Translations under genes and position numbers: made by a program
Notes under the pieces: generated by a model
Database searches by the model: none
Told to the model about the DNA's origin: nothing
The model's input: the letters and a program-made list of their open reading frames with translations, nothing else
Shown here: in pieces, positions 3,359 through 64,000 of the stretch
Numbering within the stretch: the first letter of the stretch is position 1
Layout of the letters: each line of letters starts with the position of its first letter
Source: an uncultured Parachlamydiaceae bacterium
GTDB taxonomy: Bacteria; Chlamydiota; Chlamydiia; Chlamydiales; Parachlamydiaceae
Length of the DNA stretch: 64,000 nucleotides
NCBI GenBank assembly: GCA_963742415.1
Contig: CAVULX010000003.1
Span: 1-64,000 of the forward strand
Direction: 5' to 3'

Positions 3359-3385
3359 GCATCCCTCTCTTCTTAGGAGGGGTGC
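3359..3385. terminator. Hairpin between convergent genes, probable intrinsic terminator
   Basis: GCATCCCTC...GAGGGGTGC followed by TTT, 11 nt after the stop of 2748..3347. Confidence 0.5.
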
Positions 3386-3442
3386 TTTGGCTATCCATAA
3401 AATTCTAGTTGTATCAATCATGAAGGCGTCTACTTACTTAGC

Positions 3443-3781
3443 TTAGCAACAAAGGTCTTTTCTACACTTGAGCATCTTTTTTAGATCAGAACTGTAGGGT
3501 TTAATTTTTTTTAGCTCTTCCAAAGTTACCATAATAATGTTTTGTGCCCATGCAGGAAGGTTTGGATTTAATCGATAATAAACCCATTGCCCTCTTCGTT
3601 CATCTGATACAAGACCTGACTTACGTAAGTAAGCCAGGTGTCTTGATATTTTTGGTTGGATGCTATCTAGGATATTGCTGAACTCGCAAACACAAAGCTC
3701 CTTCTGCTTATTAAGAAGAAGAAGGCAGCGCAATCTCGTTTCATCTGATAAGAGAGTAAATAACTCGTTTGCAGTTATCAT
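3443..3781 (-). CDS. arsR: ArsR/SmtB family arsenic-responsive repressor
   Basis: ELCVCE metal box, SRHLAYLR helix, RRGQWVYY wing, C-terminal CC; overlaps the arsM stop. Confidence 0.9.
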   Translation of the reverse strand: MITANELFTLLSDETRLRCLLLLNKQKELCVCEFSNILDSIQPKISRHLAYLRKSGLVSDERRGQWVYYRLNPNLPAWAQNIIMVTLEELKKIKPYSSDLKKMLKCRKDLCC

Positions 3782-35789: not shown

Positions 35790-36237
35790 TAGTGGGTGCT
35801 GAATTCATAACAATTTCCCCTTGAAAATGATGTATGCATGCATTTTTGATCTAAATAAATTTGCAAAGAATATGGCTTTTAGTTTCAAAAGTTTGCAAAT
35901 TTTTTCCTGAAACTGTCCTCTATGAAAGAAGAATTTTATGCCGTCCTTACAGGACTCTGTTTTTTTACATTTTACCCAGGCCTCCGCTTCGCTACGACCT
36001 GGGCTATAACATTTCGGCCTTTCAGGCCGTTTTCAGCGCCGAAGGCGCGGAATATCATAGCCCAGGTCGTAGCGGAGCGAAGGCCTTTCAGGCCGTTTTC
36101 AGCGCCGAAGGCGCGGAATATCATAGCCCAGGTCGTAGCGAAGCGGAGGCCTGGGTAAAATGTAAAAAAACAGAGTCCTGTAAGGACGGCATAAAATTCT
36201 TCTTTCGTCGATATAGACGTTAAATTAGCATCAACTA
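35790..36237 (+). mobile_element. MITE/REP-like element, copy 1
   Basis: Perfect 84-bp arms at 35924-36007 and 36123-36206, internal 66-bp tandem duplication; the whole unit recurs inverted at 63543-63915. Confidence 0.85.
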
Positions 36238-38573: not shown

Positions 38574-39992
38574 ATGAGGTCATTTATGGATATAAGCAGC
38601 AAAATTTTGCAATTTTTTCAGTGGATTTGCCGTTTTAATTTTGGGGATTTCGAGAGGGAAGAATTCAAAAAATTTTTGAGGCTGGGTTTGATTTTCGCTT
38701 TGATTATAGGAGTCTATTGGACGCTCCGCCCATTGAAAGATGCTGTTTTTATTCAATTAGTAGATCGGCTCCATCTTCCTTATGCCAAGACAGTCTCCGT
38801 ACTGGCATTACTCCCCTTTGTTATGTTCTATACGAAACTTTTAGAGAGGACTTCTAGAGAGAAGATGTTGGTCATTTTGCCTGCTTTTTATGGCATTACT
38901 GTCTTATGCTTTGCCGCTCTGATGTCGTGGGCGCAAGCTCCAGCAGAAGAGATCGCAGCCCGTTCATTTTTGCCTTATGTTGCGACAAAAGTGTTAGGAT
39001 ATGTCTGGTATCTATTCGTCGAAAGCTTCGGCTCATTAGTGGTTGCGTTGTTTTGGGCGTTTTCAGCGGATACAACAGAACCCTCCTCAGCTAAACGGGG
39101 ATTTCCACTCGTCGTTGCTCTCGGTCAAATGGGCGGCATCATCTCCCCTTATAGTATAGGCGGGCTTCCCCACAGGCTTGGGCTTAAAACAGATGCACTT
39201 TCTATGGTCTTTTTAGGCGTTTTGATCCTCTTAATTATTCCGTTGATTCACTACTTTCTCAGAGCCACACCCAAAACATTGTTGACCTCCTTTCATGGAA
39301 AAAATGAACAGCAGATAGAACAGGAGCAAGAGCCGGGCTTTTTGGAAGGGCTGAGACTGATGTTAAAACATCGGTATTTGATTGGAATTTTTGCTGCCAA
39401 TTTCATTTATGAAGTTGTCGTCACGATTTTTGATTTTAATTTTAAAATAGCTGCAGGGGCTCAATATACCGGAGTCGCCTTGAGCCATTATCTTAGCCTC
39501 TATGGATCTAGTGTTAATATTGTATCATTGCTTTGCTTATTATTAGGAATCAGCAATATCACCCGTTTTCTTGGTGTGGGGGTTGCTTTAGCTGCAATGC
39601 CGATCATTGTGGGATGCGCCCTTTTTGGTTTTTTGACGATGAATAGCCTTGCATTTCTTTTTGGCCTGATGGTGGGATCGAAAGCGATCAATTATGCTCT
39701 CAATGGACCCGCCTTAAAGCAACTTTATATCCCAACGACTCCCGATGTGCGGTTCAAAGCGCAAGCTTGGATAGAAACATTTGGCTCAAGGGCTTCAAAA
39801 GAAGCAGGCTCCATTTTCAATATGTTATTGACTCCTCTTCAGACAGCATTTGGAGCTTTTTTAGGCCGTTCATATTATTTAATGTTAAGCGGCGTGCTCG
39901 GATTTCCTCTTTTGGCTTTATGGCTCATCGTTGCCATTTTCCTTGGAAAAACCTTTAGAAGAGCCATCGAAAACAAACAAGTTATTTGTTAA
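38574..39992 (+). CDS. NTT/TLC-family nucleotide transport protein (ATP/ADP translocase family)
   Basis: EFKKF, YWTLRPLKD, ALFWAF, AKRGFP, KAINYALN.P..KQLYIP, KAQAWIE.FGSR..K; about 12 transmembrane helices. Confidence 0.85.
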   Translation: MRSFMDISSKILQFFQWICRFNFGDFEREEFKKFLRLGLIFALIIGVYWTLRPLKDAVFIQLVDRLHLPYAKTVSVLALLPFVMFYTKLLERTSREKMLVILPAFYGITVLCFAALMSWAQAPAEEIAARSFLPYVATKVLGYVWYLFVESFGSLVVALFWAFSADTTEPSSAKRGFPLVVALGQMGGIISPYSIGGLPHRLGLKTDALSMVFLGVLILLIIPLIHYFLRATPKTLLTSFHGKNEQQIEQEQEPGFLEGLRLMLKHRYLIGIFAANFIYEVVVTIFDFNFKIAAGAQYTGVALSHYLSLYGSSVNIVSLLCLLLGISNITRFLGVGVALAAMPIIVGCALFGFLTMNSLAFLFGLMVGSKAINYALNGPALKQLYIPTTPDVRFKAQAWIETFGSRASKEAGSIFNMLLTPLQTAFGAFLGRSYYLMLSGVLGFPLLALWLIVAIFLGKTFRRAIENKQVIC

Positions 39993-49919: not shown

Positions 49920-50600
49920 CTAAGGGTTGTTAAAGTCGTAAATATGATATGTTCCAGGCATTGGGATAGCGCCATACTTGCCCGTCAGTGCTTTTGAAAC
50001 ATGACAATAATTAAAAGCGTGTGTGACTATCAAAACAGTTTGGTTTTGGAGATAGGATAAACTCTGTAAAAAATCATCTGTTCTACTATAAACTGAGTGA
50101 CCTGATTCCCCTTGGGAAGGCTTTCCTTCGAGCATATCTTCTTCCGAAGAATAACTTGCTTTATAGACATTATAATTTTCTCCATCCGCTGTTCCAAAAT
50201 TCTGCGTCGCCAACCGGGAATCAACGATCAATTCATTCGGCTGTAAATTCAAAGTTGCTCCTAACAAACTGATGGTTTCCTGAGTTCTAAATGCGGGTGA
50301 TGTGTAAATACGGGAAATATTTTGCTGCGATAAGACGGGTATTGCCTCTTGCAATTGTGTTAACCCTTCAGTGGTTAAAGCGTAGCCTGGGGAAATTGTA
50401 GAAGTTACAATATCAGCCACGTTATTTGAGCTTTGAAAATTGCATAACACGACTAATCGGAGTTGATTTTTAGATAGTGTGTTAACCAATTTAGAATCTT
50501 GGGCAAAAAAATGATCTCCATTTTCATCTCCGTCTCCATTTCCGTAAATCATGGAAGAAAAAGAGACTAACAAAAATAAGAAAAATTTCAAACTTTTCAT
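49920..50600 (-). CDS. Histidine phosphatase-fold exported protein lacking the RHG motif
   Basis: LT..G..Q, IYTSP..RT.ET, L...NFG, GES, VLIVTH; the RHG position reads CNF. Confidence 0.7.
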   Translation of the reverse strand: MKSLKFFLFLLVSFSSMIYGNGDGDENGDHFFAQDSKLVNTLSKNQLRLVVLCNFQSSNNVADIVTSTISPGYALTTEGLTQLQEAIPVLSQQNISRIYTSPAFRTQETISLLGATLNLQPNELIVDSRLATQNFGTADGENYNVYKASYSSEEDMLEGKPSQGESGHSVYSRTDDFLQSLSYLQNQTVLIVTHAFNYCHVSKALTGKYGAIPMPGTYHIYDFNNP

Positions 50601-50708
50601 CCTATTCCTCTCCTGTAATAAATTGAAATATCAGCTTTTGCTTCGTATCGATAACAAGTAAGTTGTTTTAAGACAATAGGAACCTGAGTTTAGATAATGT
50701 GCTAGAGA

Positions 50709-50924
50709 CTAGCTTTTTGGATGGAAGGTATGATTGAATAAATTTATGATGGGCAAACTTGCATTGGAATCTATGCTTTTGACTTTCACGCTTTTGCCAT
50801 TCAGTTTGCCTGTAGAATTAAAACCTTCTTTTGCATCAAGTGCATCTAAATGATTTTGATAATACTTGTAGTGCTCATTTCTTTTTTTTCTTTTTAATAA
50901 ATCTTCAAAAGTAAGAGGATCCAT
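50709..50924 (-). CDS. Small hypothetical protein
   Basis: 71-aa ATG ORF in an otherwise empty interval. Confidence 0.4.
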   Translation of the reverse strand: MDPLTFEDLLKRKKRNEHYKYYQNHLDALDAKEGFNSTGKLNGKSVKVKSIDSNASLPIINLFNHTFHPKS

Positions 50925-51136
50925 AATAAACCATAAAATAAATTTATTCTAATCTAATTATACCAGTTTTCATAATTTTATTCAATAAAAATATAAAATT
51001 CTAAGTTTACACCTATTTTATTCAAAATTTCTTGTTAGGATTTAATATTTAACTCTATGGTAGGAACAATTCATACTCCTAGGGAGGCCATATCGATGCC
51101 AACTGATCGAATTTCCATTAATTTAGGTGAGCCCCT

Positions 51137-52294
51137 ATGAATCGAACAAAAAGGTCAGCGATTGCGTTTGTCATTCTTATGGGAATGGTGAGTCTCTTTG
51201 GTGACATGACTTATGAAGGCGCGCGGAGCATTACAGGTCAATATTTGGCTATTCTTGGTGCAAACGGAGCCATCGTTGGCGTTATAGCTGGATTTGGGGA
51301 GTTCATTGGTTACGGCTTCAGGCTTGTTTCTGGATATGTCAGTGATAAGACGGGAAAATACTGGCCGATCACGTTCATTGGGTACACGATTAACCTTTTA
51401 GCTGTTCCCCTTTTAGCTCTAGCGGGCAATTGGCCTGTAGCTGCTGCTTTAATCATTATTGAACGATTCGGGAAAGCTGTCCGCTCCCCAGCCAAAGACG
51501 CGATGCTTTCATATGCGACTAAGGAAGTGGGACGAGGGTGGGGATTTGGCCTCCATGAAGCTATGGATCAAGCCGGAGCTATTATAGGCCCGTTAATGAT
51601 GAGTTGTGTTCTTTATTTTCATGGAACATATCAAGCAGGGTTTGCGCTTCTTTTAATTCCCGCTTTATGCGCCTTAGCCGTATTAACGTGCGCGAGAATT
51701 TCTTACCCTAGTCCGGAAAAATTGGAGATTGCGCAGCCCAAGTTGAGTGGAGAGCGTTTGAACAGGAAATATTGGCTTTATGTCATTGCAGTTTCATGTG
51801 TGGCGGCAGGTTATGTGGATTTTGCTTTGATTGCTTTTCATTTAAAAAAAGGATCGCTTATTTCAGATGCTTGGATATCTATCATTTTTTCTATTTCCAT
51901 GGGAGCAGCAGGGGTAGCAGCTCTAGTTTTTGGAAAGCTTTATGATCGGTGGGGTTTTTCCGTTTTAATTTTTGCGACAGCTCTTGCATCCTTATTCGCA
52001 CTATTGGTATTTATTGATGGATTTTATTTCGCGTTAGCAGGAATGATTTTGTGGGGTATGGGGCTGGGAACTCAAGAGTCGATCATGCGCGCCTTTGTGG
52101 CTGATCTTGTCCAGATGAATAAGAGAGCCACTGCTTATGGAATTTTGAATATCTGGTTTGGAATTTTCTGGTTTGTAGGAAGCGCTTTGATGGGTTTTTT
52201 ATATGATATTTCGGTGACCTATTTAATCATTTTTTCCATGAGCATCCAGCTCTGTTCCATTCCTCTCCTTTTTGCGGTGAAGCATTCAGAATGA
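51137..52294 (+). CDS. MFS transporter
   Basis: SLFGDMTYEGARS, SG..SDK, ERFGKAVRSPAKD, G.LYDR; 12 transmembrane pattern. Confidence 0.9.
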   Translation: MNRTKRSAIAFVILMGMVSLFGDMTYEGARSITGQYLAILGANGAIVGVIAGFGEFIGYGFRLVSGYVSDKTGKYWPITFIGYTINLLAVPLLALAGNWPVAAALIIIERFGKAVRSPAKDAMLSYATKEVGRGWGFGLHEAMDQAGAIIGPLMMSCVLYFHGTYQAGFALLLIPALCALAVLTCARISYPSPEKLEIAQPKLSGERLNRKYWLYVIAVSCVAAGYVDFALIAFHLKKGSLISDAWISIIFSISMGAAGVAALVFGKLYDRWGFSVLIFATALASLFALLVFIDGFYFALAGMILWGMGLGTQESIMRAFVADLVQMNKRATAYGILNIWFGIFWFVGSALMGFLYDISVTYLIIFSMSIQLCSIPLLFAVKHSE

Positions 52295-52316
52295 AAACTA
52301 AAAGACTGTTATGTCC

Positions 52317-52461
52317 TTATAACAAATTTTTATTTGATAAAAAGCATCTTGATAATCTTTAATGGTGCTCAAAGAGAGTTGCGAATATTAAATATTGAAC
52401 ATGAAAGTCTTTGAATCAGTCTAAAACTAGATAAACAAATTATAATTATTTCAGGAGCTCT
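52317..52461 (+). repeat. Conserved upstream block of subtype A genes (also about 53739-53859 and 56042-56185)
   Basis: TTTGATAAAAA.CATCTTGATAATCTT.AAT.GTGCTCAAAGAGAGTTGCGAATATT...GAACATGAAAGTCTTTGAATCAG.CTAAAACTAGAT...AGGAG.TCTATG present three times. Confidence 0.85.
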
Positions 52462-53742
52462 ATGATCTTTGAATCATATAGTAGGGGAATAACTAATAGC
52501 CCCTTTGACATTGTTGGTGAAAGCGAATGGGGATTTAGTAGCAATTTTCATGATGTTGAGACTGTTGAAACCGGATTTATGCCAACAGACAATCTTTCAA
52601 CCGGAGAAAATGGTATTGACGAAATGTATGATGAGCCTCTTTCAATGGACCTAGTTGGAAAAATTGATCTGTTTAATCCATGTGTGGGTAATGACACTCA
52701 AAATTTCCCCTTTATAACGTTTGAAGGGTTAGGTAATTTTTTAAAATCACCATTTCAAGAAAATGCCCAAGAAGCCCTAGAACAAAATTCCTGCACCAGC
52801 AATACAGAAAACACACCCGAAGTTTCAAAAAAACGTACAAGAAAACCTTCTTCTGGTAAAAAAGAAACTCTCAACACCTCAAAAAAACGTAAAAAGGACC
52901 CTTATTCTTCTACTGAATATGGTAAAAGTTATCGAGAAGCCCAGAAAAAATATAATGAACATCTTGAAGAAAAAGTAACTGATTTGTTTAAAACTTTTAA
53001 AGATCTGTTGAAACAAATGAAAGCCAAGTCTCAGAATTCTCTACAGCCACCCGATCAAGACATGCTTCAGAAATCTTTTAATGAGCTTCGGGAATCTTTA
53101 CGGCCTCTAGATTATTCAAGTTGGAAGAATAAAAATAATGTAATTCCTTTTTCTGAATTTGCTAAATCTAAGTCAAATTTAAATCGTTCTTCATACTATA
53201 ACGATATTCGCGATAAATATAATAGTTACAAAATCTTATTAATAAATAAATTATTTAAAAAAATTAATCAAGGCCGTGCGTTATTGGAATTGACAGAGAT
53301 TATTGAGGAACCTGCTGTCTCTTTTTATGAATTTAGACAATCTATCAAGAACAAAGACCATTTAATAAGCAAATCTCAAACAGAAAGCCTCTCACAAAAT
53401 TCAAATCAAGAAAATCAAAAAATTTTTCTTGAAGGCTATAATATTAAAGCAATCGGCTACCTTTTGAAGGATAACCGCTTACTTGTAAAAAAGGATTCTG
53501 AGGCATGCATGATAGAGGCAAAATCATTAAAAGAATATTATATCAAGATCCGTCAACAACTTGTGAAAGATAAGATTCTCATTCTCGAAGAAAAAAGATA
53601 TAAATTTACAAAGGATTATATCTTCAGGACTCCCACATTGGCCGCCTCGGCAATTCTTGGAACGGCTGTTAATGGGAAAAGATATTGGAAAAATGAGTCA
53701 GGGCAATCTATTACAAAAGTCGAATCGAATAAATCGGTTTGA
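52462..53742 (+). CDS. DUF4357/RAMA-like domain protein, array subtype A (A1)
   Basis: C-terminal FTKDYIFRTPTLAASAILG..VNG..YWKNESG; KKRTRK and KKRKK clusters; AGGAG RBS. Confidence 0.8.
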   Translation: MIFESYSRGITNSPFDIVGESEWGFSSNFHDVETVETGFMPTDNLSTGENGIDEMYDEPLSMDLVGKIDLFNPCVGNDTQNFPFITFEGLGNFLKSPFQENAQEALEQNSCTSNTENTPEVSKKRTRKPSSGKKETLNTSKKRKKDPYSSTEYGKSYREAQKKYNEHLEEKVTDLFKTFKDLLKQMKAKSQNSLQPPDQDMLQKSFNELRESLRPLDYSSWKNKNNVIPFSEFAKSKSNLNRSSYYNDIRDKYNSYKILLINKLFKKINQGRALLELTEIIEEPAVSFYEFRQSIKNKDHLISKSQTESLSQNSNQENQKIFLEGYNIKAIGYLLKDNRLLVKKDSEACMIEAKSLKEYYIKIRQQLVKDKILILEEKRYKFTKDYIFRTPTLAASAILGTAVNGKRYWKNESGQSITKVESNKSV

Positions 53743-53859
53743 TAAAAAACATCTTGATAATCTTAAATAGTGCTCAAAGAGAGTTGCGAATATTGAACAT
53801 GAAAGTCTTTGAATCAGTCTAAAACTAGATTAACCAATCATAAATATCTAAGGAGATCT

Positions 53860-55104
53860 ATGTACTCGGAAACAACTTTGAATAATGGAACTGCTTTTTT
53901 TAATATCCCCTTTGACTTTGCTTCTGAAAAGGGTACCATTGGTAGTTTTTATGTTGAAGAAACTATTGAAACTGGATGTATGCCAACAGGCGATCTTCCA
54001 ACTAGAGAAAATGATATTTTGTTTGATGATCCTCTTTCAATGGGCCTAGTTGAAAAAATTAATCTTTTTAATCCATTTGTGAGTAATGACTCTCAGAATT
54101 CCCCCTCTGTAACGTCAGAAGCATTAGATGATTTTTTAAGTGTATCATCTCAAGACAATGCCCAAGAAGTCCTAGAACAAAATTCCTGTATTAGCAATAA
54201 AGAAAACACCCCCGCAGTTTCAAAAAAACGTAAAAGAAAACATTCTTCAAAAGAAACTTCCTATGTCTCAAAACTACCTAAAACGGACTCTGTTTCTATT
54301 GAATATATGAAAAATTATCGAGAAGCCCAAAGAAATTATAATAAATATCTTGAAAAAAGAGTAGATGATCTATTTAAAACTTTTATAGATATGTGGGAAC
54401 AAATAAAAGCTAAGTATCAGAATTCCCTACAGCCTTTCGATCAAGACGTGCTTCAGAAATTTAAAGAGCTTCGAAAGTCTTTACGGCCTCTAAATTTTTC
54501 AAGTTGGAAGAAAAAAAATAATGTACTCTCTTTTCCTGTATCTAAGTCAAATTCAAAGCGTTCTACATTCTATAGAGAGATTCACGAAAAATATGATAAT
54601 TACAAAATCTCATTAATCAATAAATTATTTATAAAAATTAATGAAGGCCATGCGTTATTGGGGTGGCCAAAGCTTATCGAGGAACCTGTTATTTCTTTTT
54701 CTGATTATAGGCAATTTAACGATAACAATGACTATCCAACGAATCAAGAAAATCAAAGATATATTCTTAAGCGCAAAAGGAAAATTATTGCAATCGCCTA
54801 CCTTATGAGTGATAACCGCATGTGTGTAATGAAGGATTCTAAAGCACGCATGTCGGAGGCAAAATCCTTGAAAAATGGTTATTCCGAACTCCGTCAGCAA
54901 CTCGTGGAAGGTGGGATTCTAATTCCTGATGATAAGAGTCCAATTTCCGAAGAAAAACTATATATATTTACAACGAATTATACCTTCAAATCTGCCACAT
55001 CGGCTGCCGTGGCAATTCTTGGAAGAACTGTAAGTGGGAAAAATCTTTGGAAAAATGAGTCAGGGCAATCTATTACAAAAGTCGAATCGAATAAATGGGT
55101 TTGA
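53860..55104 (+). CDS. DUF4357/RAMA-like domain protein, subtype A (A2)
   Basis: Paralog of A1; start moved to the ATG after AAGGAGATCT; KKRKRK; FKSATSAAVAILG..VSG..LWKN. Confidence 0.8.
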   Translation: MYSETTLNNGTAFFNIPFDFASEKGTIGSFYVEETIETGCMPTGDLPTRENDILFDDPLSMGLVEKINLFNPFVSNDSQNSPSVTSEALDDFLSVSSQDNAQEVLEQNSCISNKENTPAVSKKRKRKHSSKETSYVSKLPKTDSVSIEYMKNYREAQRNYNKYLEKRVDDLFKTFIDMWEQIKAKYQNSLQPFDQDVLQKFKELRKSLRPLNFSSWKKKNNVLSFPVSKSNSKRSTFYREIHEKYDNYKISLINKLFIKINEGHALLGWPKLIEEPVISFSDYRQFNDNNDYPTNQENQRYILKRKRKIIAIAYLMSDNRMCVMKDSKARMSEAKSLKNGYSELRQQLVEGGILIPDDKSPISEEKLYIFTTNYTFKSATSAAVAILGRTVSGKNLWKNESGQSITKVESNKWV

Positions 55105-55151
55105 TAAACATTATGTAAATATACTTTAATATCAATAATTCAAGGAGATAT

Positions 55152-56012
55152 ATGACCATCAATTTACGTCCGACTGAGCCTAATATCTCAAGTATCAATT
55201 TTTGGGATGAAGGAGAAATTGAATCTGGATTGGAGTCAAGAAAAACTTTAAACGGAGGAAATGATGTTGACGAAATATTTAAGAGTGATGATTTATCTCT
55301 TGACCTGATTGAAAAAGTTGATTTTTTTAATCCATGTGGGGATCAGTATCTTCAAAAATTACCCTCTTATGCATCTGAAGATTCAGTGAATTTTGTTGAA
55401 AAAAAAACCGAGATGAATGAAGTGACTTATATAGTCGATTTTGTGGATAGGTTTGGGAAGAATATTGAATTTTCTTCCGGAGTTGATGATTTAGATGATA
55501 TAAAACTTCCTCCATCAAAAAAACGTAAAATTGGCCCATTAAATGACCAGAATATTTTTCAGACCAGACATGATGTCTCAAGTTCAGCAGAGGAAATTGG
55601 CGAAAAATATACTATAAAAGAGAATCAAATTTATGCTATCGGCTACCCTTTGGGCGGAAAGAGCATGCGTGTAAAAGAAGGCTCTACGGCGAGCCTGAGT
55701 GAGGTACCATTGTTAAATAAATGTCATGTCATATGCCGCAAAAGTCTTGTGCAAAATGGTGTTCTAACTGTAACTACCGATGGTACAAAATATAGATTTA
55801 CAAGAGATTTCGACTTCAAGTCATCCACAGGTGCTGCCTCGGTCATCCGCGGAAAAAATTCATGTGGGACTGTATGTTGGAAAAATGAGGCGGGGCTATG
55901 CATCAATAAAAAGAAATATCAGAGGACTAAGAAAGGTCAAATGAATTCTTCAAAAATACTTGCGAAAGGAACCGCGATCAACCGGTCTATAAGTGAGAGC
56001 CTGAATTTTTAA
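55152..56012 (+). CDS. DUF4357/RAMA-like domain protein, subtype B (B1)
   Basis: PPSKKRKI; FTRDFDFKSSTGAASVIRG...G..CWKNEAG; C-terminus extended relative to B2 and B3. Confidence 0.8.
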   Translation: MTINLRPTEPNISSINFWDEGEIESGLESRKTLNGGNDVDEIFKSDDLSLDLIEKVDFFNPCGDQYLQKLPSYASEDSVNFVEKKTEMNEVTYIVDFVDRFGKNIEFSSGVDDLDDIKLPPSKKRKIGPLNDQNIFQTRHDVSSSAEEIGEKYTIKENQIYAIGYPLGGKSMRVKEGSTASLSEVPLLNKCHVICRKSLVQNGVLTVTTDGTKYRFTRDFDFKSSTGAASVIRGKNSCGTVCWKNEAGLCINKKKYQRTKKGQMNSSKILAKGTAINRSISESLNF

Positions 56013-56185
56013 AATAACTAAAAAGGAAAGCAAACTGTCTTTATAACAAATTTTTATTTGATAAAAAACATCTTGATAATCTTTAATAGTGCTCAAAGAG
56101 AGTTGCGAATATTAAATATTGAACATGAAAGTCTTTGAATCAGCCTAAAACTAGATTAACAAATCATAAATATTTAAGGAGATCT

Positions 56186-57451
56186 ATGTCCTTTGGTATA
56201 AATTTGAATAACGGAACAACTTTTTGTAATAGCCCCTCCTTTGACTTTGTACCTGGAAGCGAACGGGGATTCAGTTGCAATTTTTATAATGATGAAACTA
56301 TTGAAAATGGATTTATGCCAACAGACAATCTTCCAACTGAAAAAAATGGTCTTTTGTTTAATGAGCCTCTCTCAATGGACCTAGATGTAAATCTTCGCAA
56401 TCCATGTGTGAGTAATGACACTCAAAGTTTTCCCTTTACAACGTTTGAAGAATTAGGTAATGATTTAAAATCGTCATCTCCAGACAATGCCCAAGAAGTA
56501 CTAGAACAAAATTCCGGTATCAGCACAGAAAACACCCCCGCATTTTCAAAAAAACGTACAAGAAATCCTTCTATTGATACAAAAGAAACTCTCAATCCCT
56601 CCAAAAAACCTAGAAAGGATCCTTATTCTTCCATTAAATATATGCAAAATTATCGAGAAGCCCAGAAAAACTATGAAGAATATCTTAAGGCAAGAGTAAA
56701 TGACTTGTTTAAAACTTTTTTAGTTCTGTTGAAACAAATGAAAGCCTATCATAAGAATTCCCTACAGTCTTTCGATCAAGACGTGCATCAGAAATTTAAC
56801 AACCTTCAAAAGTCTTTACGGCCTCTAAATTTTTCAAGTTGGAAGAAAAAAAATAATATACTCCCTTTTTCTGAAGTTGCTAAAACCCAGTCAGATTTAA
56901 AGAGTTCTACATACTATAGAGAGATTCACAATAAATATGATAATTACAAAATCTTATTAATCGATAAATTATTTAAAAAAATTAATGAAGGCCGTGCGTT
57001 ATTGGGGTTGCCAGAGGTTATTGAGGAACCCGCCGTTTATTTTTATGAATTTAGACAAAACGGCAATAACAAAGACTATCCAATAAGCAGATCTTACACA
57101 CAAAATACAAATCAAGAAAATCAAAAATATTTCCTTAAGAAAAAAAACAAAATTATAGCAACCGCCTCCCTTTTGCGTGGTAACCGCTTACGTGTAAAAA
57201 AAGATTCTGAGGCATATATGACGGAGGCAAAATCATCAAAAAAATGTTATATCAATATCCGTCAAAAACTTGTGAATGATGGGATTCTAATTCCCAAAAA
57301 TGAAAGATATATATTTACAAAGGATTATATTTTCAAGTCTGCCTCATTTGCTGCCTCGGCAATTCTTGGAGCATCTGTAGCTGGGAAAAGTCTTTGGAAA
57401 AATGAATCAGGGCAAAGTATTAAACAAGTCGAGTCGAATAAACAAGTTTGA
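56186..57451 (+). CDS. DUF4357/RAMA-like domain protein, subtype A (A3)
   Basis: Paralog of A1; start after AAGGAGATCT; FTKDYIFKSASFAASAILG. Confidence 0.8.
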   Translation: MSFGINLNNGTTFCNSPSFDFVPGSERGFSCNFYNDETIENGFMPTDNLPTEKNGLLFNEPLSMDLDVNLRNPCVSNDTQSFPFTTFEELGNDLKSSSPDNAQEVLEQNSGISTENTPAFSKKRTRNPSIDTKETLNPSKKPRKDPYSSIKYMQNYREAQKNYEEYLKARVNDLFKTFLVLLKQMKAYHKNSLQSFDQDVHQKFNNLQKSLRPLNFSSWKKKNNILPFSEVAKTQSDLKSSTYYREIHNKYDNYKILLIDKLFKKINEGRALLGLPEVIEEPAVYFYEFRQNGNNKDYPISRSYTQNTNQENQKYFLKKKNKIIATASLLRGNRLRVKKDSEAYMTEAKSSKKCYINIRQKLVNDGILIPKNERYIFTKDYIFKSASFAASAILGASVAGKSLWKNESGQSIKQVESNKQV

Positions 57452-57497
57452 TAACCGTTTGTAAATACATTCTAATATCAATAATTCAAGGAGATCT

Positions 57498-57892
57498 ATG
57501 TTCATTAATTCATATTCGGCTGACTCTAATACCTTAAACGGCAATTTTTGGGATGTAGTAAAAATTGAATCTGGATCGGAGTCAAGAAACATTTTAAACG
57601 AAAGAAATTATGTTAATGAAATATTTAATAGTGATTTATCATTAAGGAGGCAAAATCGATAGATAAATGTTATGCCAAGTGGCGTAAAAAACTTGTGAAA
57701 AATGATGTTCTAACTGCAACTGAGGATGGAAAAAAATATAAATTTACCGCGGATTTCATCTTCCGGTCACCCTCACATGCTGCCTCGGTCATCTGCGGAA
57801 AAAATACAAGCGGGCCTGGAAATTGGAAAAATGAGGCGGGAAAAAGTATTAGGCAATTAATTGAAACGAAAAAAAAATTCAGAGGACTATGA
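57498..57892 (+). pseudogene. Subtype B copy (B2) with a large internal deletion
   Basis: ATG 57498 gives MFINSYSADSNTLNGNFWD...SDLSL, matching B1/B3 N-termini; it then jumps out of frame to GGAGGCAAAATC, matching B3 near 61147; the 3' part keeps FRSPSHAASVICG...WKNEAG. Confidence 0.85.
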
Positions 57893-58084
57893 AAGGTAAG
57901 CAAATTGTTTTTTTATAATAAATTCGTATTTGCTAAAAAAACATTTTATACATTAAAGAGTAGATTTTTGTTTAATTAATTTTGTATAAATGTTAGGTTA
58001 TAAAAAATTAAATAGAATTCTACTATGAAGCATTAAATGTGCTATAGAATTTGATTAACTAATAACAATAATTTAAGGAATTAT
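57893..58084 (+). repeat. Conserved upstream block of subtype C genes (second copy about 61699-61887)
   Basis: AAAGGTAAGCAAATTGTTTTTT.ATAATAAA...GTATTTGCTAAAAAAA...GATTAACTAAT..CAATAATTTAAGGA present twice. Confidence 0.8.
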
Positions 58085-58939
58085 ATGTCTACTCAACCTG
58101 TTTATTTTAATCCAATAAATTACCCTCTTACAAATTATTCAGGACTTGAAAGCCAACAAAAATCAGGTTTATGTTTTCAGGATTGCGATGTTCATAATGG
58201 ATCAGTAAGTGAATTGGAACCGAATAGCAATTATTCAAATGTTAATAAAAATTCATTTAACACAAAAAGTTTGGAAAAACTGGCTTATAAAACTCATCAG
58301 GTTATTGTTGGGGCTAATATATCTTTAGATTCTTCTGAACCCAAATATTTAGGAGCTTTTGACGAAACTACTGCCAATTCTCAAAGTGTCCTTAAGCAAA
58401 CTTCCCTCAACGACGATACAGATTGCCTCAGAGAGTCAAATAAACGTAAAAGAGAATCTTCAGCTCAAGCTCGAATTTCTCAAAAGCGTCCAAAGGGTTG
58501 GATTTTCCATACCGCAAATCCTGCAGTCAAGAAAAACTTAAAAAAGCCTTCTAATTTTCAAGACGTAGGTGATGCCCCAAACTCAAAATCAGAATCGGAT
58601 GAATACACTCTTAGGCGTAAAGAGATTCTTGCGACAGGCCAGCTTTTAAAAGATAATTCCATGCTTGTAAAAAAAGGTTCTACGGCTTGCATAGAGACAG
58701 TAGCATCAATGCATAATGGATATTTAAGACTCCGCGAAAAACTTTTGAAAAAAAATATTCTAGGTCTCGATCCCGATAGTGAAAATAAAAATTATATATT
58801 TAAAGATGAATATATCTTTAGGACGCCCTCACTAGCTGCCTCGGTGATCTCTGGGGCAAATGCAAGTGGAAGTGACTATTGGAAAAATAGGTCGAACCAA
58901 AGCATTAAGGCCGTCGAATTGAAGAAAAAAAATAGCTAG
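58085..58939 (+). CDS. DUF4357/RAMA-like domain protein, subtype C (C1)
   Basis: NKRKRE; VKKGSTA; YIFRTPSLAASVISG..ASG..YWKN. Confidence 0.8.
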   Translation: MSTQPVYFNPINYPLTNYSGLESQQKSGLCFQDCDVHNGSVSELEPNSNYSNVNKNSFNTKSLEKLAYKTHQVIVGANISLDSSEPKYLGAFDETTANSQSVLKQTSLNDDTDCLRESNKRKRESSAQARISQKRPKGWIFHTANPAVKKNLKKPSNFQDVGDAPNSKSESDEYTLRRKEILATGQLLKDNSMLVKKGSTACIETVASMHNGYLRLREKLLKKNILGLDPDSENKNYIFKDEYIFRTPSLAASVISGANASGSDYWKNRSNQSIKAVELKKKNS

Positions 58940-59019
58940 ACATTACTCGGCTATGAGCTTGAATGATTCGGGCATATTATAAAATTAGATTAACAAATCA
59001 TAAATATTTAAGGAGATCT

Positions 59020-60303
59020 ATGCTCCCTGGTACAACTTTGAATAGCGGAACAACTTTTTACAATAGCCCCGACTTTGTACCTGGAAGCGAATGGGGATTC
59101 GGTAGCAATTTTTGTGATGATGAAACTATTGAAACTGAATTTATGCTAACAAACAATCTTCTAACTGGAGAAAATGGTCTTGGCGAAAAGTTTAATGAGC
59201 ATCTTTCAATGGACCTAGTTGAAAAAATTGATCTGTTTAATCCATGTGTGGGTAATCACACTCAAAGTTTCCCCTTTACAACGTTTGAAGAATTAGGTAA
59301 TGATTTACAATCGTCACCTCAAGACAATGCCCAAGAAGTCCTAGAACAAAATTCCTGCACCAGCAATACAGAAAGCTCTCCCAAAGCTTCAAGAAAACGT
59401 AGAAGAAAACCTTCTATTGATACAAAAAAAACTCTCAATGCCTCAAAAAAACCTAAAAAGGACCGATATTTTGAATATAGAAAAAATTATCGAGAAGCCG
59501 AGAAAAATTATGATATATATCTTGAAGAAAGAGTAAAAAATTTGTTTAAAACTTTTATAGGACTGTGGGATCAAATGAAAGCCAAGCATCAGAATTCTCT
59601 ACAGCCTCCCGCTCAAGACATGCTTCAGAAATCTTTTAATGAGCTTCGGGAATCTTTACGGCCTCTAGATTTTTCAAGCTGGAAGATTAAAAATAATGTA
59701 CCTTCATTTACTGATTCTGCTAAAATTAAGTTAAATTTAAAAAATTCTACATACTATAAAGACATCCACGATAGATATAATAATTACAAAATCGTATTAA
59801 TTGATAATTTATTTAAAAAAATTAATGAAGGCCGTGCGTTATTGGGTTTGCCAGAGGTTATTGGGGTATCTACTGTTTCTTTTGATGAATTTAGGAAATA
59901 TATCAAAAATAAAGACTATCCCATAAGCAGTTCTCAAACACAGAGTCTCACACAAAGTTCAAATCAAGAAAATCAAAAATATATTCTTAAGGACAAGAAG
60001 AATATTAAAGCAATTGCTTACCTTTTGTGGGATAACAGCTTACTCGTAAAAAAGGATTCTGAGGCATGCATGATGGAGCCACAATCATTAAAGAAATGTT
60101 ATAGCAAGATCCGTCAAAAACTTGTGAAAGATATGGTTCTAATTCCCGAAAAAGGAAGATACATATTTACAAGTGACTATATCTTCAAGTCTCCCACATT
60201 TGCAGCCTCGGCGATCCTTGGATCATCTGTAAGTGGGAAAAAATATTGGAAAAATGAGTCAGGGCTAAGTATTGAACAAGTCGAATCAAAAAAATGGCTT
60301 TGA
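59020..60303 (+). CDS. DUF4357/RAMA-like domain protein, subtype A (A4)
   Basis: Start after AAGGAGATCT; RKRRRK; FTSDYIFKSPTFAASAILG..VSG..YWKNESG. Confidence 0.8.
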   Translation: MLPGTTLNSGTTFYNSPDFVPGSEWGFGSNFCDDETIETEFMLTNNLLTGENGLGEKFNEHLSMDLVEKIDLFNPCVGNHTQSFPFTTFEELGNDLQSSPQDNAQEVLEQNSCTSNTESSPKASRKRRRKPSIDTKKTLNASKKPKKDRYFEYRKNYREAEKNYDIYLEERVKNLFKTFIGLWDQMKAKHQNSLQPPAQDMLQKSFNELRESLRPLDFSSWKIKNNVPSFTDSAKIKLNLKNSTYYKDIHDRYNNYKIVLIDNLFKKINEGRALLGLPEVIGVSTVSFDEFRKYIKNKDYPISSSQTQSLTQSSNQENQKYILKDKKNIKAIAYLLWDNSLLVKKDSEACMMEPQSLKKCYSKIRQKLVKDMVLIPEKGRYIFTSDYIFKSPTFAASAILGSSVSGKKYWKNESGLSIEQVESKKWL

Positions 60304-60346
60304 CAAACTTTTGTGAACACCCTCTATCAATAATTCAAGGAGATAT

Positions 60347-61372
60347 ATGTCCATAGATGCACTGACTGACTCTAATACCTTAAGCTGCAGTTTTTGGGGT
60401 GAAGTAGAAATTGAATCTGAGTTAAGAGACATTTCAAATGAAGGAAATTATGTTAATAAAATATTTAATAATAATTTATCACTTGACCTGATTCAAAGAA
60501 TTGATTTTTTTAATCCATGTGCGGGGGAATATCTTCAAGACGTACCCTCTTTTACATCTGAAGATTCAGGAAATTTTGTAATGACATTTCAAGGAAAGCC
60601 ACCAGAAGTTCAAGAGCAAAATTCCTACGCCATCAGTACAAAAAAAACTCCTAATAACACGAAAAAACGTAAAATTGAGCCTTTATATTATCCTGATTGT
60701 GTAAAAAGACCTACGTATTGCGACCCGAACGTTTCTCTGTCAACTTTATTTTACAAGTATTATAGGCAGGAACCAAATGCTTGTTTTGATATCGAAGAAA
60801 TTCCTGAAGAGAAAGCTGAGATGAATTGTACAGATGAACCGACTTATATGGTCGGTTCTGAGGATAGGTTTGGGAAAATAATTGTACCTTCTTTCGGTGT
60901 TGATGATTTAGGTGATATAGAACATCCTGTCTCAAAAAAAAGTAAAATTGACCTTTTACATCATGCACAAAATGCTCAAAAAACTCTAAATGACCGGAAT
61001 ATTTTTCAGGCCATATGGGATGTCTCAAGTTCAGTAGCGGAAATTGGCGAAAAATATATTATAGAACATAAACAGATTTATGCTATCGGCTACCTTTTGA
61101 ACGATAACCGCATGCGCGTAAAAGCAGGTTCTACGGCATACCTGATGGAGGCAAAATCAATAGGTAAATGTTATGCAAGATGCCGTAATGAACTTATAAA
61201 AAGTGGAGTTCTAACTGTAACTGACGATGGTACAAAATATAGATTTACGGCAGATTTCGTCTTCAAGTCACCTTCGCGTGCTGCCTCGGTCATCCGCGGA
61301 ACAAATACAAGCGGGCCTGGATTTTGGAAAAATGAGGCGGGGAAAAGTATTAGGCAATTCAAAGGACTATGA
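60347..61372 (+). CDS. DUF4357/RAMA-like domain protein, subtype B (B3)
   Basis: KKRKI; FTADFVFKSPSRAASVIRGTNTSG..FWKNEAGKSI. Confidence 0.8.
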   Translation: MSIDALTDSNTLSCSFWGEVEIESELRDISNEGNYVNKIFNNNLSLDLIQRIDFFNPCAGEYLQDVPSFTSEDSGNFVMTFQGKPPEVQEQNSYAISTKKTPNNTKKRKIEPLYYPDCVKRPTYCDPNVSLSTLFYKYYRQEPNACFDIEEIPEEKAEMNCTDEPTYMVGSEDRFGKIIVPSFGVDDLGDIEHPVSKKSKIDLLHHAQNAQKTLNDRNIFQAIWDVSSSVAEIGEKYIIEHKQIYAIGYLLNDNRMRVKAGSTAYLMEAKSIGKCYARCRNELIKSGVLTVTDDGTKYRFTADFVFKSPSRAASVIRGTNTSGPGFWKNEAGKSIRQFKGL

Positions 61373-61425
61373 AAAGTTAAATCTAGTGAGGCATGCCAAT
61401 AAAGTTATTTGATAACAAATGTAGC

Positions 61426-61590
61426 TATACACAAACAACTTGAAAAATCGGTTTTAGGCTTAAGCGAAAGCTCTCGCGATTCGACTTCCGGAATCGACCC
61501 CATATTATAATATTGGGTCGATTCCGGAAGTCGAATCGCGAGAGCTTTCGCTTAAGCCTAAATTCCGATTTTTCAAGTCGTTTGGGTATA
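61426..61590. mobile_element. 165-bp palindromic MITE-like element inside the array
   Basis: TATACACAAACAACTTGAAAAATCGG...CCGATTTTTCAAGTCGTTTGGGTATA, near-perfect foldback, TA at both ends, absent from paralogous spacers. Confidence 0.85.
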
Positions 61591-61887
61591 ACATCGGCCC
61601 GACTATCAACTGTTACTTGAATTCTTCAAAAATACATGCGAAATTGAACCATGATCAACCTGTCAATAAGCGAGAGCCTTAATTTTTAAAATAATTAAAA
61701 AGGTAAGCAAATTGTTTTTTATAATAAACTTGTATTTGCTAAAAAAATTTTATTCATTAAAAAAGAGATTTTTGTTTAATTAATTTGGTAGAAATGTTAA
61801 GTTATAAAAATTTAAAAGAATTCTAATATGAAGTATTAAAAGTGTTATAAAATTAGATTAACTAATGCCAATAATTTAAGGAGATAT

Positions 61888-62676
61888 ATGTCTGTAAATC
61901 CAACCAATTTTAATTCAATAAATTATGATACTAGATACACTCATGCAAGATTTGAAAGTCAACAAGAACCAAGTTTAAGTTTTCAGGGTGGCGGCATACC
62001 TAATGAATCCGTATGTGAATTGGAATTGAATAACAACCTTTCAAATGAAAACGAAGATATTAAAAATTTATTTAACACAACTGATTTAGAAGAACTGGCT
62101 AAAGAAATTGATCGGTTTAATCCATATAATTTTGAATGTGAGACTGATATATCTTTAAATTTAAACTTTTTTCAATCCAAAGAATTAGGTTCTTTTGACG
62201 AAACTTCTACCGATTCCCGACAAGTCCCAGAACAAAATCCCTCCATCGACGATACAGATCGTCCCAGAGCGTCAAAAAAACGTAAAAGAGAACCTTCAAT
62301 TCAAGGCGAAAGTGATACTCCAAATTCAAAATCAAAATTGCAAGAATATATTCTTGAACGTAAAGGTATTCTTGCAAAAGGCCAGCTTTTGACAGATGAT
62401 TCCATGCTTGTAAAAAAAGGTTCTACGGCTTGCATGGAGACGGTACCATCAATAGCTAGAGGATATTTAAAACTCCGCAAAGAACTTTTGAATAAAAAAA
62501 TTCTAGTTCCCGATAGTGGAAATAAAAAATATATATTTACAAATGATTATACCTTCGGGAACTGGACAATAGCTGCCTCGGTGATCTCTGGGGTATGTGT
62601 AAGTGGAAGTAAATTTTGGAAAAATTCGTCGATCCAAAGCATTAAGGCCATCAAATTAAAGAGAAAAAATAGCTAG
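61888..62676 (+). CDS. DUF4357/RAMA-like domain protein, subtype C (C2)
   Basis: SKKRKRE; VKKGSTA; FTNDYTFGNWTIAASVISG..VSG..FWKN. Confidence 0.8.
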   Translation: MSVNPTNFNSINYDTRYTHARFESQQEPSLSFQGGGIPNESVCELELNNNLSNENEDIKNLFNTTDLEELAKEIDRFNPYNFECETDISLNLNFFQSKELGSFDETSTDSRQVPEQNPSIDDTDRPRASKKRKREPSIQGESDTPNSKSKLQEYILERKGILAKGQLLTDDSMLVKKGSTACMETVPSIARGYLKLRKELLNKKILVPDSGNKKYIFTNDYTFGNWTIAASVISGVCVSGSKFWKNSSIQSIKAIKLKRKNS

Positions 62677-62765
62677 ACATTACTCGGCTATAAGATTAAA
62701 TGATTCTAAGTAGTGGGGCATTTTATAAAATTAGATTGACTAATACCAATAATTTAAGGAGATAT

Positions 62766-63545
62766 ATGTCTTTTGATTCAATCTATTGTAATTCAACAAA
62801 TTATTATAATTATAGTAACAATTATTCAGGACTTGGGAGTCAACATGAATCGGAATCGAATAACAACCTTTCAAATGAAAACGAAGCTATTGAAGAATTA
62901 TTTGAGACAAATTATTCAGAAGAACTGATTAAAAAAATTGATAGCTTTAATCCATTTAAAGTTGAATGTGAGACTGATATATCTTTAAATTTAAACTTTT
63001 TTGAATTCAAAGATTTAGGTTCTTTTGACGAAACTTCTACCGATTCCCGACAAGTCCCAGAGCAAAATCTCTCCATCGACGACACAGATCGTCCCAGAGC
63101 GCCAAAAAAACGTAAAAGAGAACCTTCAATTCAAGGCGAAAGTGATACTCCAAATTCAAAATCAAAACCGAAAGAATATACTCTTGATTCTAAAGGTATT
63201 CTTGCAAAAGGCCAGCATTTGGAAGGTAATCTCATGCGTGTAAAAAAAGGTTCTACGGCGTGTAAGGAGATGGCAAAATCAATTAGTGAAAATTATTCCA
63301 CACTCCGCAATCAACTTTTGGACAATAAAATTCTAGTTCTCGATAGTCTAAAAGAAAAATATGAATTTACAAGCGCTTATACCTTCCAGTCCCCCACACA
63401 AGCTGCCTCGGTGATCCGTGGAGCAAATACAAATGGGAGAACTTCTTGGAAGAATACTACCTCGAAACAAAATCTTAATGATGTCGCATGGAATAAAAAA
63501 AGAGCTAGATTTTTCGAGACTATGGAGTTGAATGATTCTAAGTAG
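62766..63545 (+). CDS. DUF4357/RAMA-like domain protein, subtype C (C3)
   Basis: Start after AAGGAGATAT; PKKRKRE; YTFQSPTQAASVIRGANTNGRTSWKN. Confidence 0.8.
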   Translation: MSFDSIYCNSTNYYNYSNNYSGLGSQHESESNNNLSNENEAIEELFETNYSEELIKKIDSFNPFKVECETDISLNLNFFEFKDLGSFDETSTDSRQVPEQNLSIDDTDRPRAPKKRKREPSIQGESDTPNSKSKPKEYTLDSKGILAKGQHLEGNLMRVKKGSTACKEMAKSISENYSTLRNQLLDNKILVLDSLKEKYEFTSAYTFQSPTQAASVIRGANTNGRTSWKNTTSKQNLNDVAWNKKRARFFETMELNDSK

Positions 63546-63915
63546 TTGATACTGATTTAACATCTATATCTACAAAAAATGAATTTTATGCCGTCCTTAC
63601 AGGACTCTGTTTTTTTTTGCATTTTACCCAGGCCTTCGCTTCGCTACGACCTGGGCTGTGATATTCCGCGCCTTCGGTGCTGAAAACGGCCTGAAAGGCC
63701 GAAATGTTATAGCCCAGGTCGTAGCGAAGCGAAGGCCTGGGTAAAATGCAAAAAAAACAGAGTCCTGTAAGGACGGCATATTTTTTTATAGAGGGAAGTT
63801 TCAGGAAAAAATTTGCAAGCTTTTGGGGCTAAAAGCCATATTATTTGCAAATTTATTTAGACCAAAAATGCATGCATACCTTATTATCAATGGGAAATTA
63901 CTACGAATTCAGCAC
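63543..63915 (-). mobile_element. MITE/REP-like element, copy 2 (inverted, no internal duplication)
   Basis: Reverse complement aligns with about 35796-36237; inner palindrome at 63587-63780. Confidence 0.85.
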
Positions 63916-64000
63916 TGATTGTACCTGAATAACTTCTAAATTGTTAATACAGCAGACCCTTCTAGCGAGCCATTTCTAATAGCTTCAAGAGCTTGATTCG

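Follow-up and report, generated by a model that had tools for sequence, protein, structure and literature searches.

TAL effectors combine a nuclear localization signal (NLS), a DNA-binding part, and an acidic activation region. Together with AnkA and the chlamydial proteins NUE and SinC they are counted among the nucleomodulins, for which a review describes a common logic, that of a secreted protein whose import signal lets it act on host chromatin (PMC7819608); neither "bZIP" nor "leucine zipper" occurs in that review. The DUF4357 domain has been described, in two other papers, as a partner of GmrSD, GIY-YIG, T5orf172, and McrB-type proteins (PMC4619093, PMC11090510). The RAMA domain of MPND binds double-stranded DNA (dsDNA) in a sequence-independent manner, with no effect of N6-methyladenine (6mA) on binding, and the acidic regions that flank it modulate its interaction with both DNA and histones; the same study names CcrM as the closest structural homolog of MPND and discusses the two RAMA domains (PMC9963953). 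Here we describe an array of ten tandem genes at positions 52462-63545 of a window of 64,000 nucleotides (nt) of DNA from an uncultured Parachlamydiaceae bacterium (contig CAVULX010000003.1, positions 1 to 64,000), in which an acidic N-terminal head and basic clusters precede a C-terminal DUF4357 domain. Our favored reading, to which we give roughly even chances, is that the ten genes code for a family of secreted proteins, specific to this lineage and quick to diversify, that would be targeted to the host nucleus and bind DNA or chromatin there. The anatomy of these proteins, their homologies, their likeness in fold, their uniqueness, and the pattern of selection on them are computed here, and secretion, nuclear import, DNA binding, and an effect on the host are what we infer.

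The array consists of nine intact paralogs and one internally deleted copy, all on the + strand (Table 1). Both the alignment and a tree of the C-terminal domains sort the genes into three subfamilies, namely long (L1, L2, L4, and L6), medium (M3, M7, and the broken copy), and short (S5, S8, and S9). Members of the long subfamily, at 414-427 amino acids (aa), are 63-67% identical to L4, and identity to L4 across subfamilies is 30-36%. All ten starts are preceded, 5-7 nt upstream, by AAGGAG, AGGAG, or AAGGA, and six of the nine intact proteins are letter-for-letter equal to independently called database proteins. An earlier reading of this DNA, made from the letters and their open reading frames (ORFs) without database searches (the sequence-only reading), had described ten co-oriented paralogs, one of them deleted, each with its own ribosome-binding site, sharing a C-terminal residue pattern that it assigned to DUF4357 and lacking a signal peptide, a transmembrane segment, or a nuclease domain. 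Our results bear out each of these observations.

The shared C-terminal pattern is visible in the alignments as a conserved block of ≈105 aa. The Pfam model of DUF4357 (PF14267) is matched by all nine intact copies, eight of them above its gathering score of 38.4 bits, with 46.0-66.5 bits, and all 21 domain sequences that we compared pass or match it. This model spans only the last 54 residues, and the whole ≈105-aa block aligns end to end, from the first strand to the last, with the C-termini of canonical 277-301-aa GIY-YIG-type proteins and with DUF4357 proteins of type IV restriction. Despite this shared domain, the array proteins differ from their nuclease-fused relatives in several respects. 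Pfam searches of the nine proteins at E ≤ 1 returned no nuclease family, and no GmrSD, HNH, or McrB-type NTPase domain; a nuclease-type N-terminal part is present in the relatives P0005 to P0007, whereas its place in the array proteins is taken by an acidic, disordered head and basic clusters. The array domain is also more basic, with a net charge of +4 to +14 compared with 0 to +6 in 11 nuclease-fused relatives, and in most copies other residues stand in place of the arginine and asparagine of the canonical GR.ANG loop.

In the domain tree, the ten array domains form one clade with 100/99 support, and the other domains included, eight from single-copy chlamydial loci and three from metagenomes, fall outside it (the tree leaves out two loci, that of genome G220, which is identical to the one of G276, and a partial match in G405). 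Because the array domains form a single, separate clade, we favor one capture followed by amplification. The sequence-only reading had pictured a restriction-associated module stripped of its nuclease; the nuclease part is indeed missing, which makes this plausible, but the array domains stand in a clade of their own, and the tree pins down no donor and does not point specifically to the DUF4357 gene that resides elsewhere in the same genome. This eleventh copy, on contig C2, encodes 286 aa with a weak GIY-YIG N-terminus (18.1 bits) and adjoins a PD-(D/E)XK nuclease gene; like the literature (PMC4619093, PMC11090510), it agrees with the earlier statement that DUF4357 is usually the tail of a GIY-YIG or restriction-type protein. 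The C2 gene (L001:1456-2316, - strand) overlaps the PD-(D/E)XK gene (2300-3040, - strand) and comes after two small ORFs that resemble a candidate toxin-antitoxin pair. A nearly identical gene is found on a short contig (L017) of genome G295, which belongs to a different family of the phylum, and the pair of sequences suggests a recent transfer between families.

To describe the fold, we used an AlphaFold model of the L4 domain (encoded at 57131-57451) built from 21 aligned sequences, with a predicted local distance difference test score (pLDDT) of 91.3 and a predicted template modeling score of 0.82. Among 48,161 representative chains, the two best matches are mouse MPND (7ydt_A; Z 6.0, root-mean-square deviation (rmsd) 2.5 Å over 64 aa) and the C-terminal domain of CcrM (6pbd_B, residues 290-355; Z 5.4, rmsd 2.4 Å over 62 aa), both modest scores in a range (Z < 8) that can reflect no more than a common arrangement. 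These two RAMA domains are small and β-rich, with three helices, and bind dsDNA, and the layout of MPND, in which acidic regions flank the RAMA domain, resembles the acidic head and domain of the array proteins. Unlike MPND and CcrM, the array proteins, which are of bacterial origin, have neither an MPN nor a methyltransferase partner domain. A sequence search of the Protein Data Bank (PDB) returned nothing relevant for the L4 domain or for a profile of the domain alignment. Ranks 3 to 5 of the fold search (Z 3.4-3.6), clearly behind these two, are a SAND domain (rank 3), an FYR domain (rank 4), and another SAND domain (rank 5); the two SAND structures are 1oqj_B (Z 3.6) and 1ufn (Z 3.4). SAND is a nuclear DNA-binding domain, and these scores are too weak to interpret. 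Overall, the model points to a modest likeness to RAMA in fold, short of the threshold of the RAMA sequence family.

A second defining feature of the family is the N-terminal head. In a full-length model of L4 (nine sequences, mean pLDDT 59), residues 1-144 are disordered, residues 150-292 are helical, residues 294-311 form a linker, and residues 312-421 form the domain; the long helices at 150-190 and 243-272 have pLDDT values mostly of 70-85. In the nine proteins, the net charge of the first 100 aa ranges from -4 to -15, with 18-23 Phe, Trp, Tyr, or Leu residues per copy, and the acidity of this stretch, which the sequence-only reading had pointed out, lies above the 97th percentile of 1533 ORFs in eight of the nine. 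A conserved motif of the type L-S-x-D-L-x-x-K-I-D-x-F-N-P lies within this acidic region. In five of the nine copies, the N-terminus is at or above the 94th percentile for Ser, Thr, Asn, Pro, and Gln and is also poor in charge. No array copy contains another Pfam domain above threshold, and no 19-aa window in the array proteins exceeds a Kyte-Doolittle value of 1.34, leaving no transmembrane or signal-peptide-like segment. A search of the ESM Atlas with residues 1-300 of L4 gave no usable match, and a two-copy complex prediction for residues 136-295 of L4 scored 0.00 (mark, 0.42), which is not evidence in either direction.

At the end of the disordered region, every basic cluster quoted by the sequence-only reading is present. 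Runs of at least four Lys or Arg residues occur in eight of the nine copies, compared with 168 of the 1845 ORFs of at least 150 aa in the genome (9.1%). The clusters occupy homologous alignment columns that are kept across subfamilies only 30-36% identical, and because they share these columns we regard them as a conserved feature of the family rather than nine independent events. L1, L4, and L6 have a pair of clusters separated by 12-14 aa, like the halves of a bipartite import signal, and in L2 the first of the pair alone is kept; the cluster is monopartite in the other two subfamilies, reading (P/S)KKRKRE in Pro/Ser-rich surroundings in the short copies. We take these clusters to fit the classical nuclear import consensus, and we read them as putative NLSs. 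A secreted protein with an import signal that acts on host chromatin, the logic of the nucleomodulins, is predicted for the array as well. The array proteins have no relation in sequence or domain content to the nucleomodulins, however: the Pfam scan gave neither TAL repeats nor an ankyrin or SET domain, and no internal protein repeats are visible in the array alignments, in contrast to the 33-35-aa repeats of TAL effectors.

The helical middle of the long copies has a counterpart outside the array. A gene of 387 aa on the - strand (C3:70587-71750; L012:7588-8751), 7 kb downstream of the array and beyond the window, passes the cut-offs of both families of eukaryotic basic leucine zipper (bZIP) factors (PF00170 and PF07716), with 47.7 bits for bZIP_2 (cut-off 22.3) and 41.8 bits for bZIP_1 (cut-off 27.6) and with three matched stretches. 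The genome has no second bZIP_2 match, and this protein holds three of the six occurrences of the pattern N..[AST]A..[SCY]R in ≈1.0 million aa of open frames. Its guanine-plus-cytosine (GC) content is at the 1st percentile, low like that of the array, and the PDB contains no match to it by sequence. Unlike eukaryotic bZIP factors, it has no long leucine zipper; the helix is followed by N-P after ≈20 residues. The long array copies are collinear with this protein from the N-terminus through the helical middle (BLASTP E 4e-7, 29% identity; HMMER, 289 bits), and by this alignment it is an eleventh member of the family, one that lacks DUF4357. The segment that comes after the second basic cluster of the long copies aligns with the basic regions of the neighbor ("YRE...NY..YL"), and in the model of L4 a 41-residue helix begins right after the basic cluster, as in a bZIP protein.

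Proteins with a canonical bZIP domain also occur elsewhere in the phylum. Four other genomes encode proteins of 200-335 aa (Table 1) that begin with a low-complexity region, contain a basic cluster, and end in a bZIP domain made up of a basic region and heptad leucines. Three of these four pass a Pfam bZIP cut-off, and their best PDB matches, which are weak, include ATF-4, C/EBP-beta, and TGA7. The literature that we searched yielded no paper on these proteins. A protein with two basic regions in genome G140 was considered as a relative and set aside; hhalign gives it a probability of 0.4% against the profile of the neighbor and long copies, and its likeness to the neighbor is confined to the basic region.

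The lifestyle of the organism bears on this reading as well. Its genome of 2.69 Mb encodes four TLC nucleotide transporters, a family present in all 60 sampled genomes of the phylum, among them those of a genus in which genomes of 1.0-1.3 Mb hold two or three copies; such transporters mark the phylum as Chlamydiota. It also encodes a gatekeeper of the HrpJ/SctW type (54.6 bits; cut-off 25), which we take as the sign of a type III secretion system in the genome; two secretin-type genes score below the YscC cut-off. As a lineage marker, Chlam_OMP6 gave a single hit of 21.5 bits, under its threshold, and a housekeeping protein found only distant relatives in unrelated phyla (26-35% identity, with one short segment at 51%), which provides no placement. 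The bacterium is a chlamydia-like, obligately intracellular organism with a type III secretion gatekeeper, in keeping with what the sequence-only reading had supposed. The fourth TLC member, inside the window (38574-39992, + strand), is divergent, scoring 71.9 bits compared with 630-696 bits for the other three.

To gain insights into how the family has evolved, we compared intact copies within subfamilies, leaving out the broken copy and all pairs that cross subfamilies. Nucleotide divergence within subfamilies is 17-22%. Over the full length of ten such pairs, the ratio of nonsynonymous to synonymous substitution rates (dN/dS) is 0.72-1.22 by the NG86 method, a pairwise estimate that is crude in AT-rich genes, and the values for the N-terminal, middle, and C-terminal thirds resemble one another. 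The nine frames, 259-427 codons long, nevertheless remain open: when half of the observed substitutions were placed at random, the frame stayed free of stops in only 0.05-3.5% of 2000 trials per lineage. Runs of insertions or deletions (indels) are multiples of three in 43 of 47 cases, and the nine proteins are identical at 21 alignment columns, of which 19 fall in the C-terminal domain. With a dN/dS near 1, open frames, and indels that keep the frame, we conclude that selection preserves these genes as open frames even though most of the encoded residues change fast. From the sequences, this is the pattern expected of proteins engaged in a conflict.

The family is confined, in every collection that we searched, to this one genome. 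A search of 5.8 billion clustered proteins with L4 returns the three other long copies, three nuclease-type proteins of 277-278 aa, and nothing else. The 387-aa neighbor finds only itself, and a region-restricted search returns two of the genome's own copies. A profile of the part outside DUF4357, run with HMMER against 1.84 billion representatives, recovers four proteins, all from this locus (L1, the neighbor, M7, and S9), and a six-frame search of the same genome recovers only the array and the neighbor. No eukaryotic relative is found among the 1.84 billion representatives, and the 399 other genomes of the phylum yield no credible match to the part outside DUF4357, the one marginal hit (15.8 bits) containing a stop codon. 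A scan of the genomes of 185,579 species for a motif of the array type, taken from an alignment of seven of the ten copies (M3, S9, and the broken copy being left out), gave 17 stretches that fit the pattern, none of which was confirmed. DUF4357 is absent from the 40 closest relatives and occurs once each in nine of the 399 other genomes (once below the cut-off); this genome has eleven matches, ten of them in the array, and no other among the 400 scored has more than one. Among the papers listed for DUF4357 none concerns effectors, and the literature that we searched contains, for nucleomodulins or bZIP proteins in Chlamydiae, Parachlamydia, and Legionella, no description of such a family, the search covering papers without their supplements. 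These results agree with the sequence-only reading, which knew of no described family of this kind, had proposed to look for the architecture in other Chlamydiota, and had named its being common in free-living bacteria as grounds for doubt; as sought through the N-terminal and middle part and the array-type motif, it was found in none. Samples of databases and genomes do not prove that the family is absent elsewhere.

Several observations weigh against nucleus-targeted DNA or chromatin binders. To begin with the domain, the fold scores are modest as given above, Foldseek finds no match to the domain model in the PDB at E ≤ 0.001, and the cut-off of the Pfam RAMA family (PF18755, 35.2 bits) is not reached; the best E value is 0.003, with matches in seven of the 21 domain sequences, and the canonical C2 copy scores 15.3 bits. 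The likeness to RAMA proposed by the sequence-only reading accordingly stands for the ranking of folds, where MPND and CcrM come first, and not for the sequence threshold or Foldseek, and its suggestion that the domain reads 6mA has no support here, 6mA having no effect on binding in the one structural study of a RAMA domain and DNA that we consulted (PMC9963953). The bZIP contact positions (N, A, and S/C) are occupied by other residues in the long copies, where the alignment shows S/Y..G/M..YR, and no long copy exceeds a bZIP cut-off; among the nine array proteins only L6 has even a weak match (bZIP_2, 16.0 bits, E 0.013). Because the contacts are replaced and the L6 match is weak, we describe the long copies as carrying a bZIP-derived helical module and not a bZIP domain. 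The clusters that we read as NLSs could simply be part of a DNA-binding surface, and four of the nine N-termini are unremarkable in polar content. A dN/dS near 1 is given equally by relaxed constraint, which only the open frames oppose. A search for sequencing runs covering 54000-63600, as a source of RNA reads, returned none. Finally, the family is seen in a single genome, 84% complete by marker count and in four contigs. Taken together, our analysis confirms what the sequence-only reading had observed and partly supports its interpretation, strengthening it in places through the bZIP link and through a dN/dS near 1 with maintained frames.

The arrangement of the array along the DNA bears on how it grew. 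The genes follow one another in the order L, L, M, L, broken M, S, L, M, S, S, and the 160 nt upstream of L1 are 93% identical to those upstream of L4; the spacing of the repeats suggests that L-M units were duplicated as blocks. The internal deletion in the broken copy removes ≈400 nt, among them the sequence for the basic cluster and for the initial half of the C-terminal domain. Where open frames extend upstream of the probable starts, the extension is the translated ribosome-binding region. The GC content of the array is 33.5%, compared with 41.6% for the genome, and its genes fall in the lowest 1-10 percentiles of 1533 ORFs for both GC and GC at third codon positions. On the + strand, terminator-like sites are found only after the last gene. 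No tRNA gene lies within 50000-64000.

Table 1. Genes of the array, associated repeats, and bZIP proteins from other genomes of the phylum (positions in the window unless a locus is named).
Feature	Position	Strand	Description
L1	52462-53742	+	Long, 426 aa; acidic disordered N-terminus; clusters KKRTRK and KKRKK; bZIP-derived helical middle; DUF4357 58.5 bits; equals P0003
L2	53860-55104	+	Long, 414 aa; open frame back to TTG 53809, ATG 53860 after AAGGAG; DUF4357 46.0 bits; equals P0004
M3	55152-56012	+	Medium, 286 aa; cluster PPSKKRKI; DUF4357 47.8 bits
L4	56186-57451	+	Long, 421 aa; DUF4357 66.5 bits; equals P0001
Broken medium-type copy	57498-57892	+	N-terminal fragment 57498-57662; C-terminal DUF4357 fragment in another frame, to 57892; 60.6 bits
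S5	58085-58939	+	Short, 284 aa; cluster KRKR; DUF4357 52.7 bits
L6	59020-60303	+	Long, 427 aa; open frame from 58963, ATG 59020 after AAGGAG; cluster RKRRRK; DUF4357 61.8 bits; equals P0002
M7	60347-61372	+	Medium, 341 aa; cluster KKRKI; DUF4357 61.3 bits; equals P0009
S8	61888-62676	+	Short, 262 aa; cluster KKRKRE; weakest DUF4357, 36.2 bits (hmmscan) or 38.9 bits (six-frame search)
S9	62766-63545	+	Short, 259 aa; open frame from 62700; cluster PKKRKRE; DUF4357 58.5 bits; equals P0010
Palindrome	61453-61562		Perfect-type, with 55-nt arms, 98% complementary; inside the 515-nt gap before S8; dispersed element, four places in the genome
Array end	63593-63757		Hairpin resembling a terminator, + strand (63593-63605); beyond it a dispersed palindromic repeat of 147 nt (63611-63757) with many copies in the genome
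bZIP protein, other genome	L031:1420-2139	-	
bZIP protein, other genome	L032:1426-2025	-	
bZIP protein, other genome	L034:1060-2064	-	
bZIP protein, other genome	L036:261-926	+	

The array is bordered by genes for a transporter of the major facilitator superfamily (MFS), a histidine phosphatase, and an alcohol dehydrogenase. A comparison of the insertion site was uninformative, the three best MFS-gene loci in two relatives having no shared neighbors. The two kinds of palindromic dispersed repeat in Table 1 are also found at about 35960-36170, and the 147-nt kind forms short tandem runs near C3:244000; both resemble miniature inverted-repeat transposable elements or repetitive extragenic palindromic elements. 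Beyond the window, a gene of the ATPase_2/DUF234 type (C3:65068-66627; L012:2069-3628, + strand) appears split into three overlapping frames (2069-2737, 2682-3065, and 3050-3628) and is possibly a pseudogene. Three tandem paralogs of 388-419 aa lie between the array and the bZIP-matching gene (C3:66701-70269; L012:3702-7270, - strand), and the one of them that was scanned has a Glyco_trans_1_2 match.

Chlamydiae are known to have lysine-rich, histone-like DNA binders, and the array might likewise encode nucleoid-associated proteins or regulators that work inside the bacterium, binding its own (methylated) DNA, for example during the developmental cycle. This would suit a strongly basic domain of prokaryotic, restriction-type ancestry. 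We nevertheless consider it improbable, as an acidic, disordered head of 100-145 aa, ten tandem copies, a dN/dS near 1, and absence from 399 other genomes of the phylum are unlike a housekeeping DNA binder, and we saw neither a palindromic operator nor an autoregulatory layout; a scan for promoters gave 40 sites where 45.6 were expected, nothing above chance.

Secreted effectors could also act away from the nucleus and from DNA, perhaps binding RNA or acidic lipids in the cytoplasm of the host or on a membrane. The lifestyle of the organism and the fast evolution of the genes speak for such proteins just as they do for nuclear ones, the fold match is modest, and the domain's ligand may have changed because the Arg and Asn of the GR.ANG loop are replaced in most copies. 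Against these points, the only solved relatives of the domain bind dsDNA, the clusters fit the classical import consensus, and the paralogous neighbor has basic regions of the transcription-factor type, so that we think a non-nuclear role unlikely.

We give little credence to a third alternative, in which the array is a panel for defense or counter-defense against phages and plasmids, made up of sensors or decoys that lack a nuclease and use DUF4357 to bind modified foreign DNA, with a head that serves as a DNA mimic or recruits another nuclease. The usual partners of DUF4357 in the literature are the type IV restriction modules McrB, GmrSD, and GIY-YIG, fast evolution and tandem amplification would also suit a conflict with mobile elements, and the region is low in GC. 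Neither in the array nor beside it, however, is there an effector enzyme, an ATPase, or another defense gene, although no PADLOC search was made, and a defense panel offers no role for conserved, SV40-like clusters in a Pro/Ser context or for paralogy with a bZIP-matching protein. Lastly, functionless debris of a decaying duplication, for which a dN/dS near 1 in all regions, one broken copy, and low GC content could be cited, is highly improbable given nine open frames at such divergence (simulated chance 0.0005-0.035 per lineage), in-frame indels, a ribosome-binding site kept at every start, and invariant columns concentrated in the C-terminal domain despite the low identity between subfamilies.

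Having set out these alternatives, we return to secreted, nucleus-targeted DNA or chromatin binders and to how such proteins might work. The disordered, acidic head of ≈100-145 aa, rich in Ser, Asn, and Phe, would carry a type III secretion signal and might in addition present an activation-like or histone-contacting surface, for which the acidic regions of MPND offer a model. The conserved, classical-type basic cluster would then direct nuclear import. In the four long forms only, a helical module would follow that shares an ancestor with the bZIP-matching neighbor and appears to have lost the canonical DNA-contact residues. The very basic RAMA-like (DUF4357) domain, probably captured once from a restriction-type nuclease protein and now free of the nuclease, would bind dsDNA or chromatin. 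More tentatively still, and as a possibility that we ourselves regard as doubtful, an amoeba-associated chlamydia may have built chimeric, eukaryote-style chromatin factors by joining a domain that reads DNA, taken from a restriction system, to a module of bZIP-type descent, a classical import signal, and an acidic head of activation-like character, and amplified them into a ten-gene panel whose members bind different states of host DNA or chromatin, possibly including modified bases, to reprogram host transcription.

Nucleus-targeted bacterial effectors are a kind already known, and it is the parts of the array proteins that have not been seen together before. To our knowledge, the class of injected transcription-factor mimics in bacteria has so far been represented mainly by the TAL effectors of plant pathogens. 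Should the array proteins reach the host nucleus, they would be the first known case of effectors based on a RAMA/DUF4357 domain, and also a rare one in which a bacterium has assembled a transcription-factor-like protein from a prokaryotic defense part and parts of eukaryotic type. Considered with the canonical bZIP proteins of four other genomes of the phylum, the wider proposal of chimeric chromatin factors would mean that environmental chlamydiae inject transcription-factor mimics into their hosts. The ten diverged copies form a natural panel for learning what a RAMA-like domain recognizes on DNA or chromatin, and whether environmental chlamydiae manipulate host transcription directly becomes a testable question with named genes.

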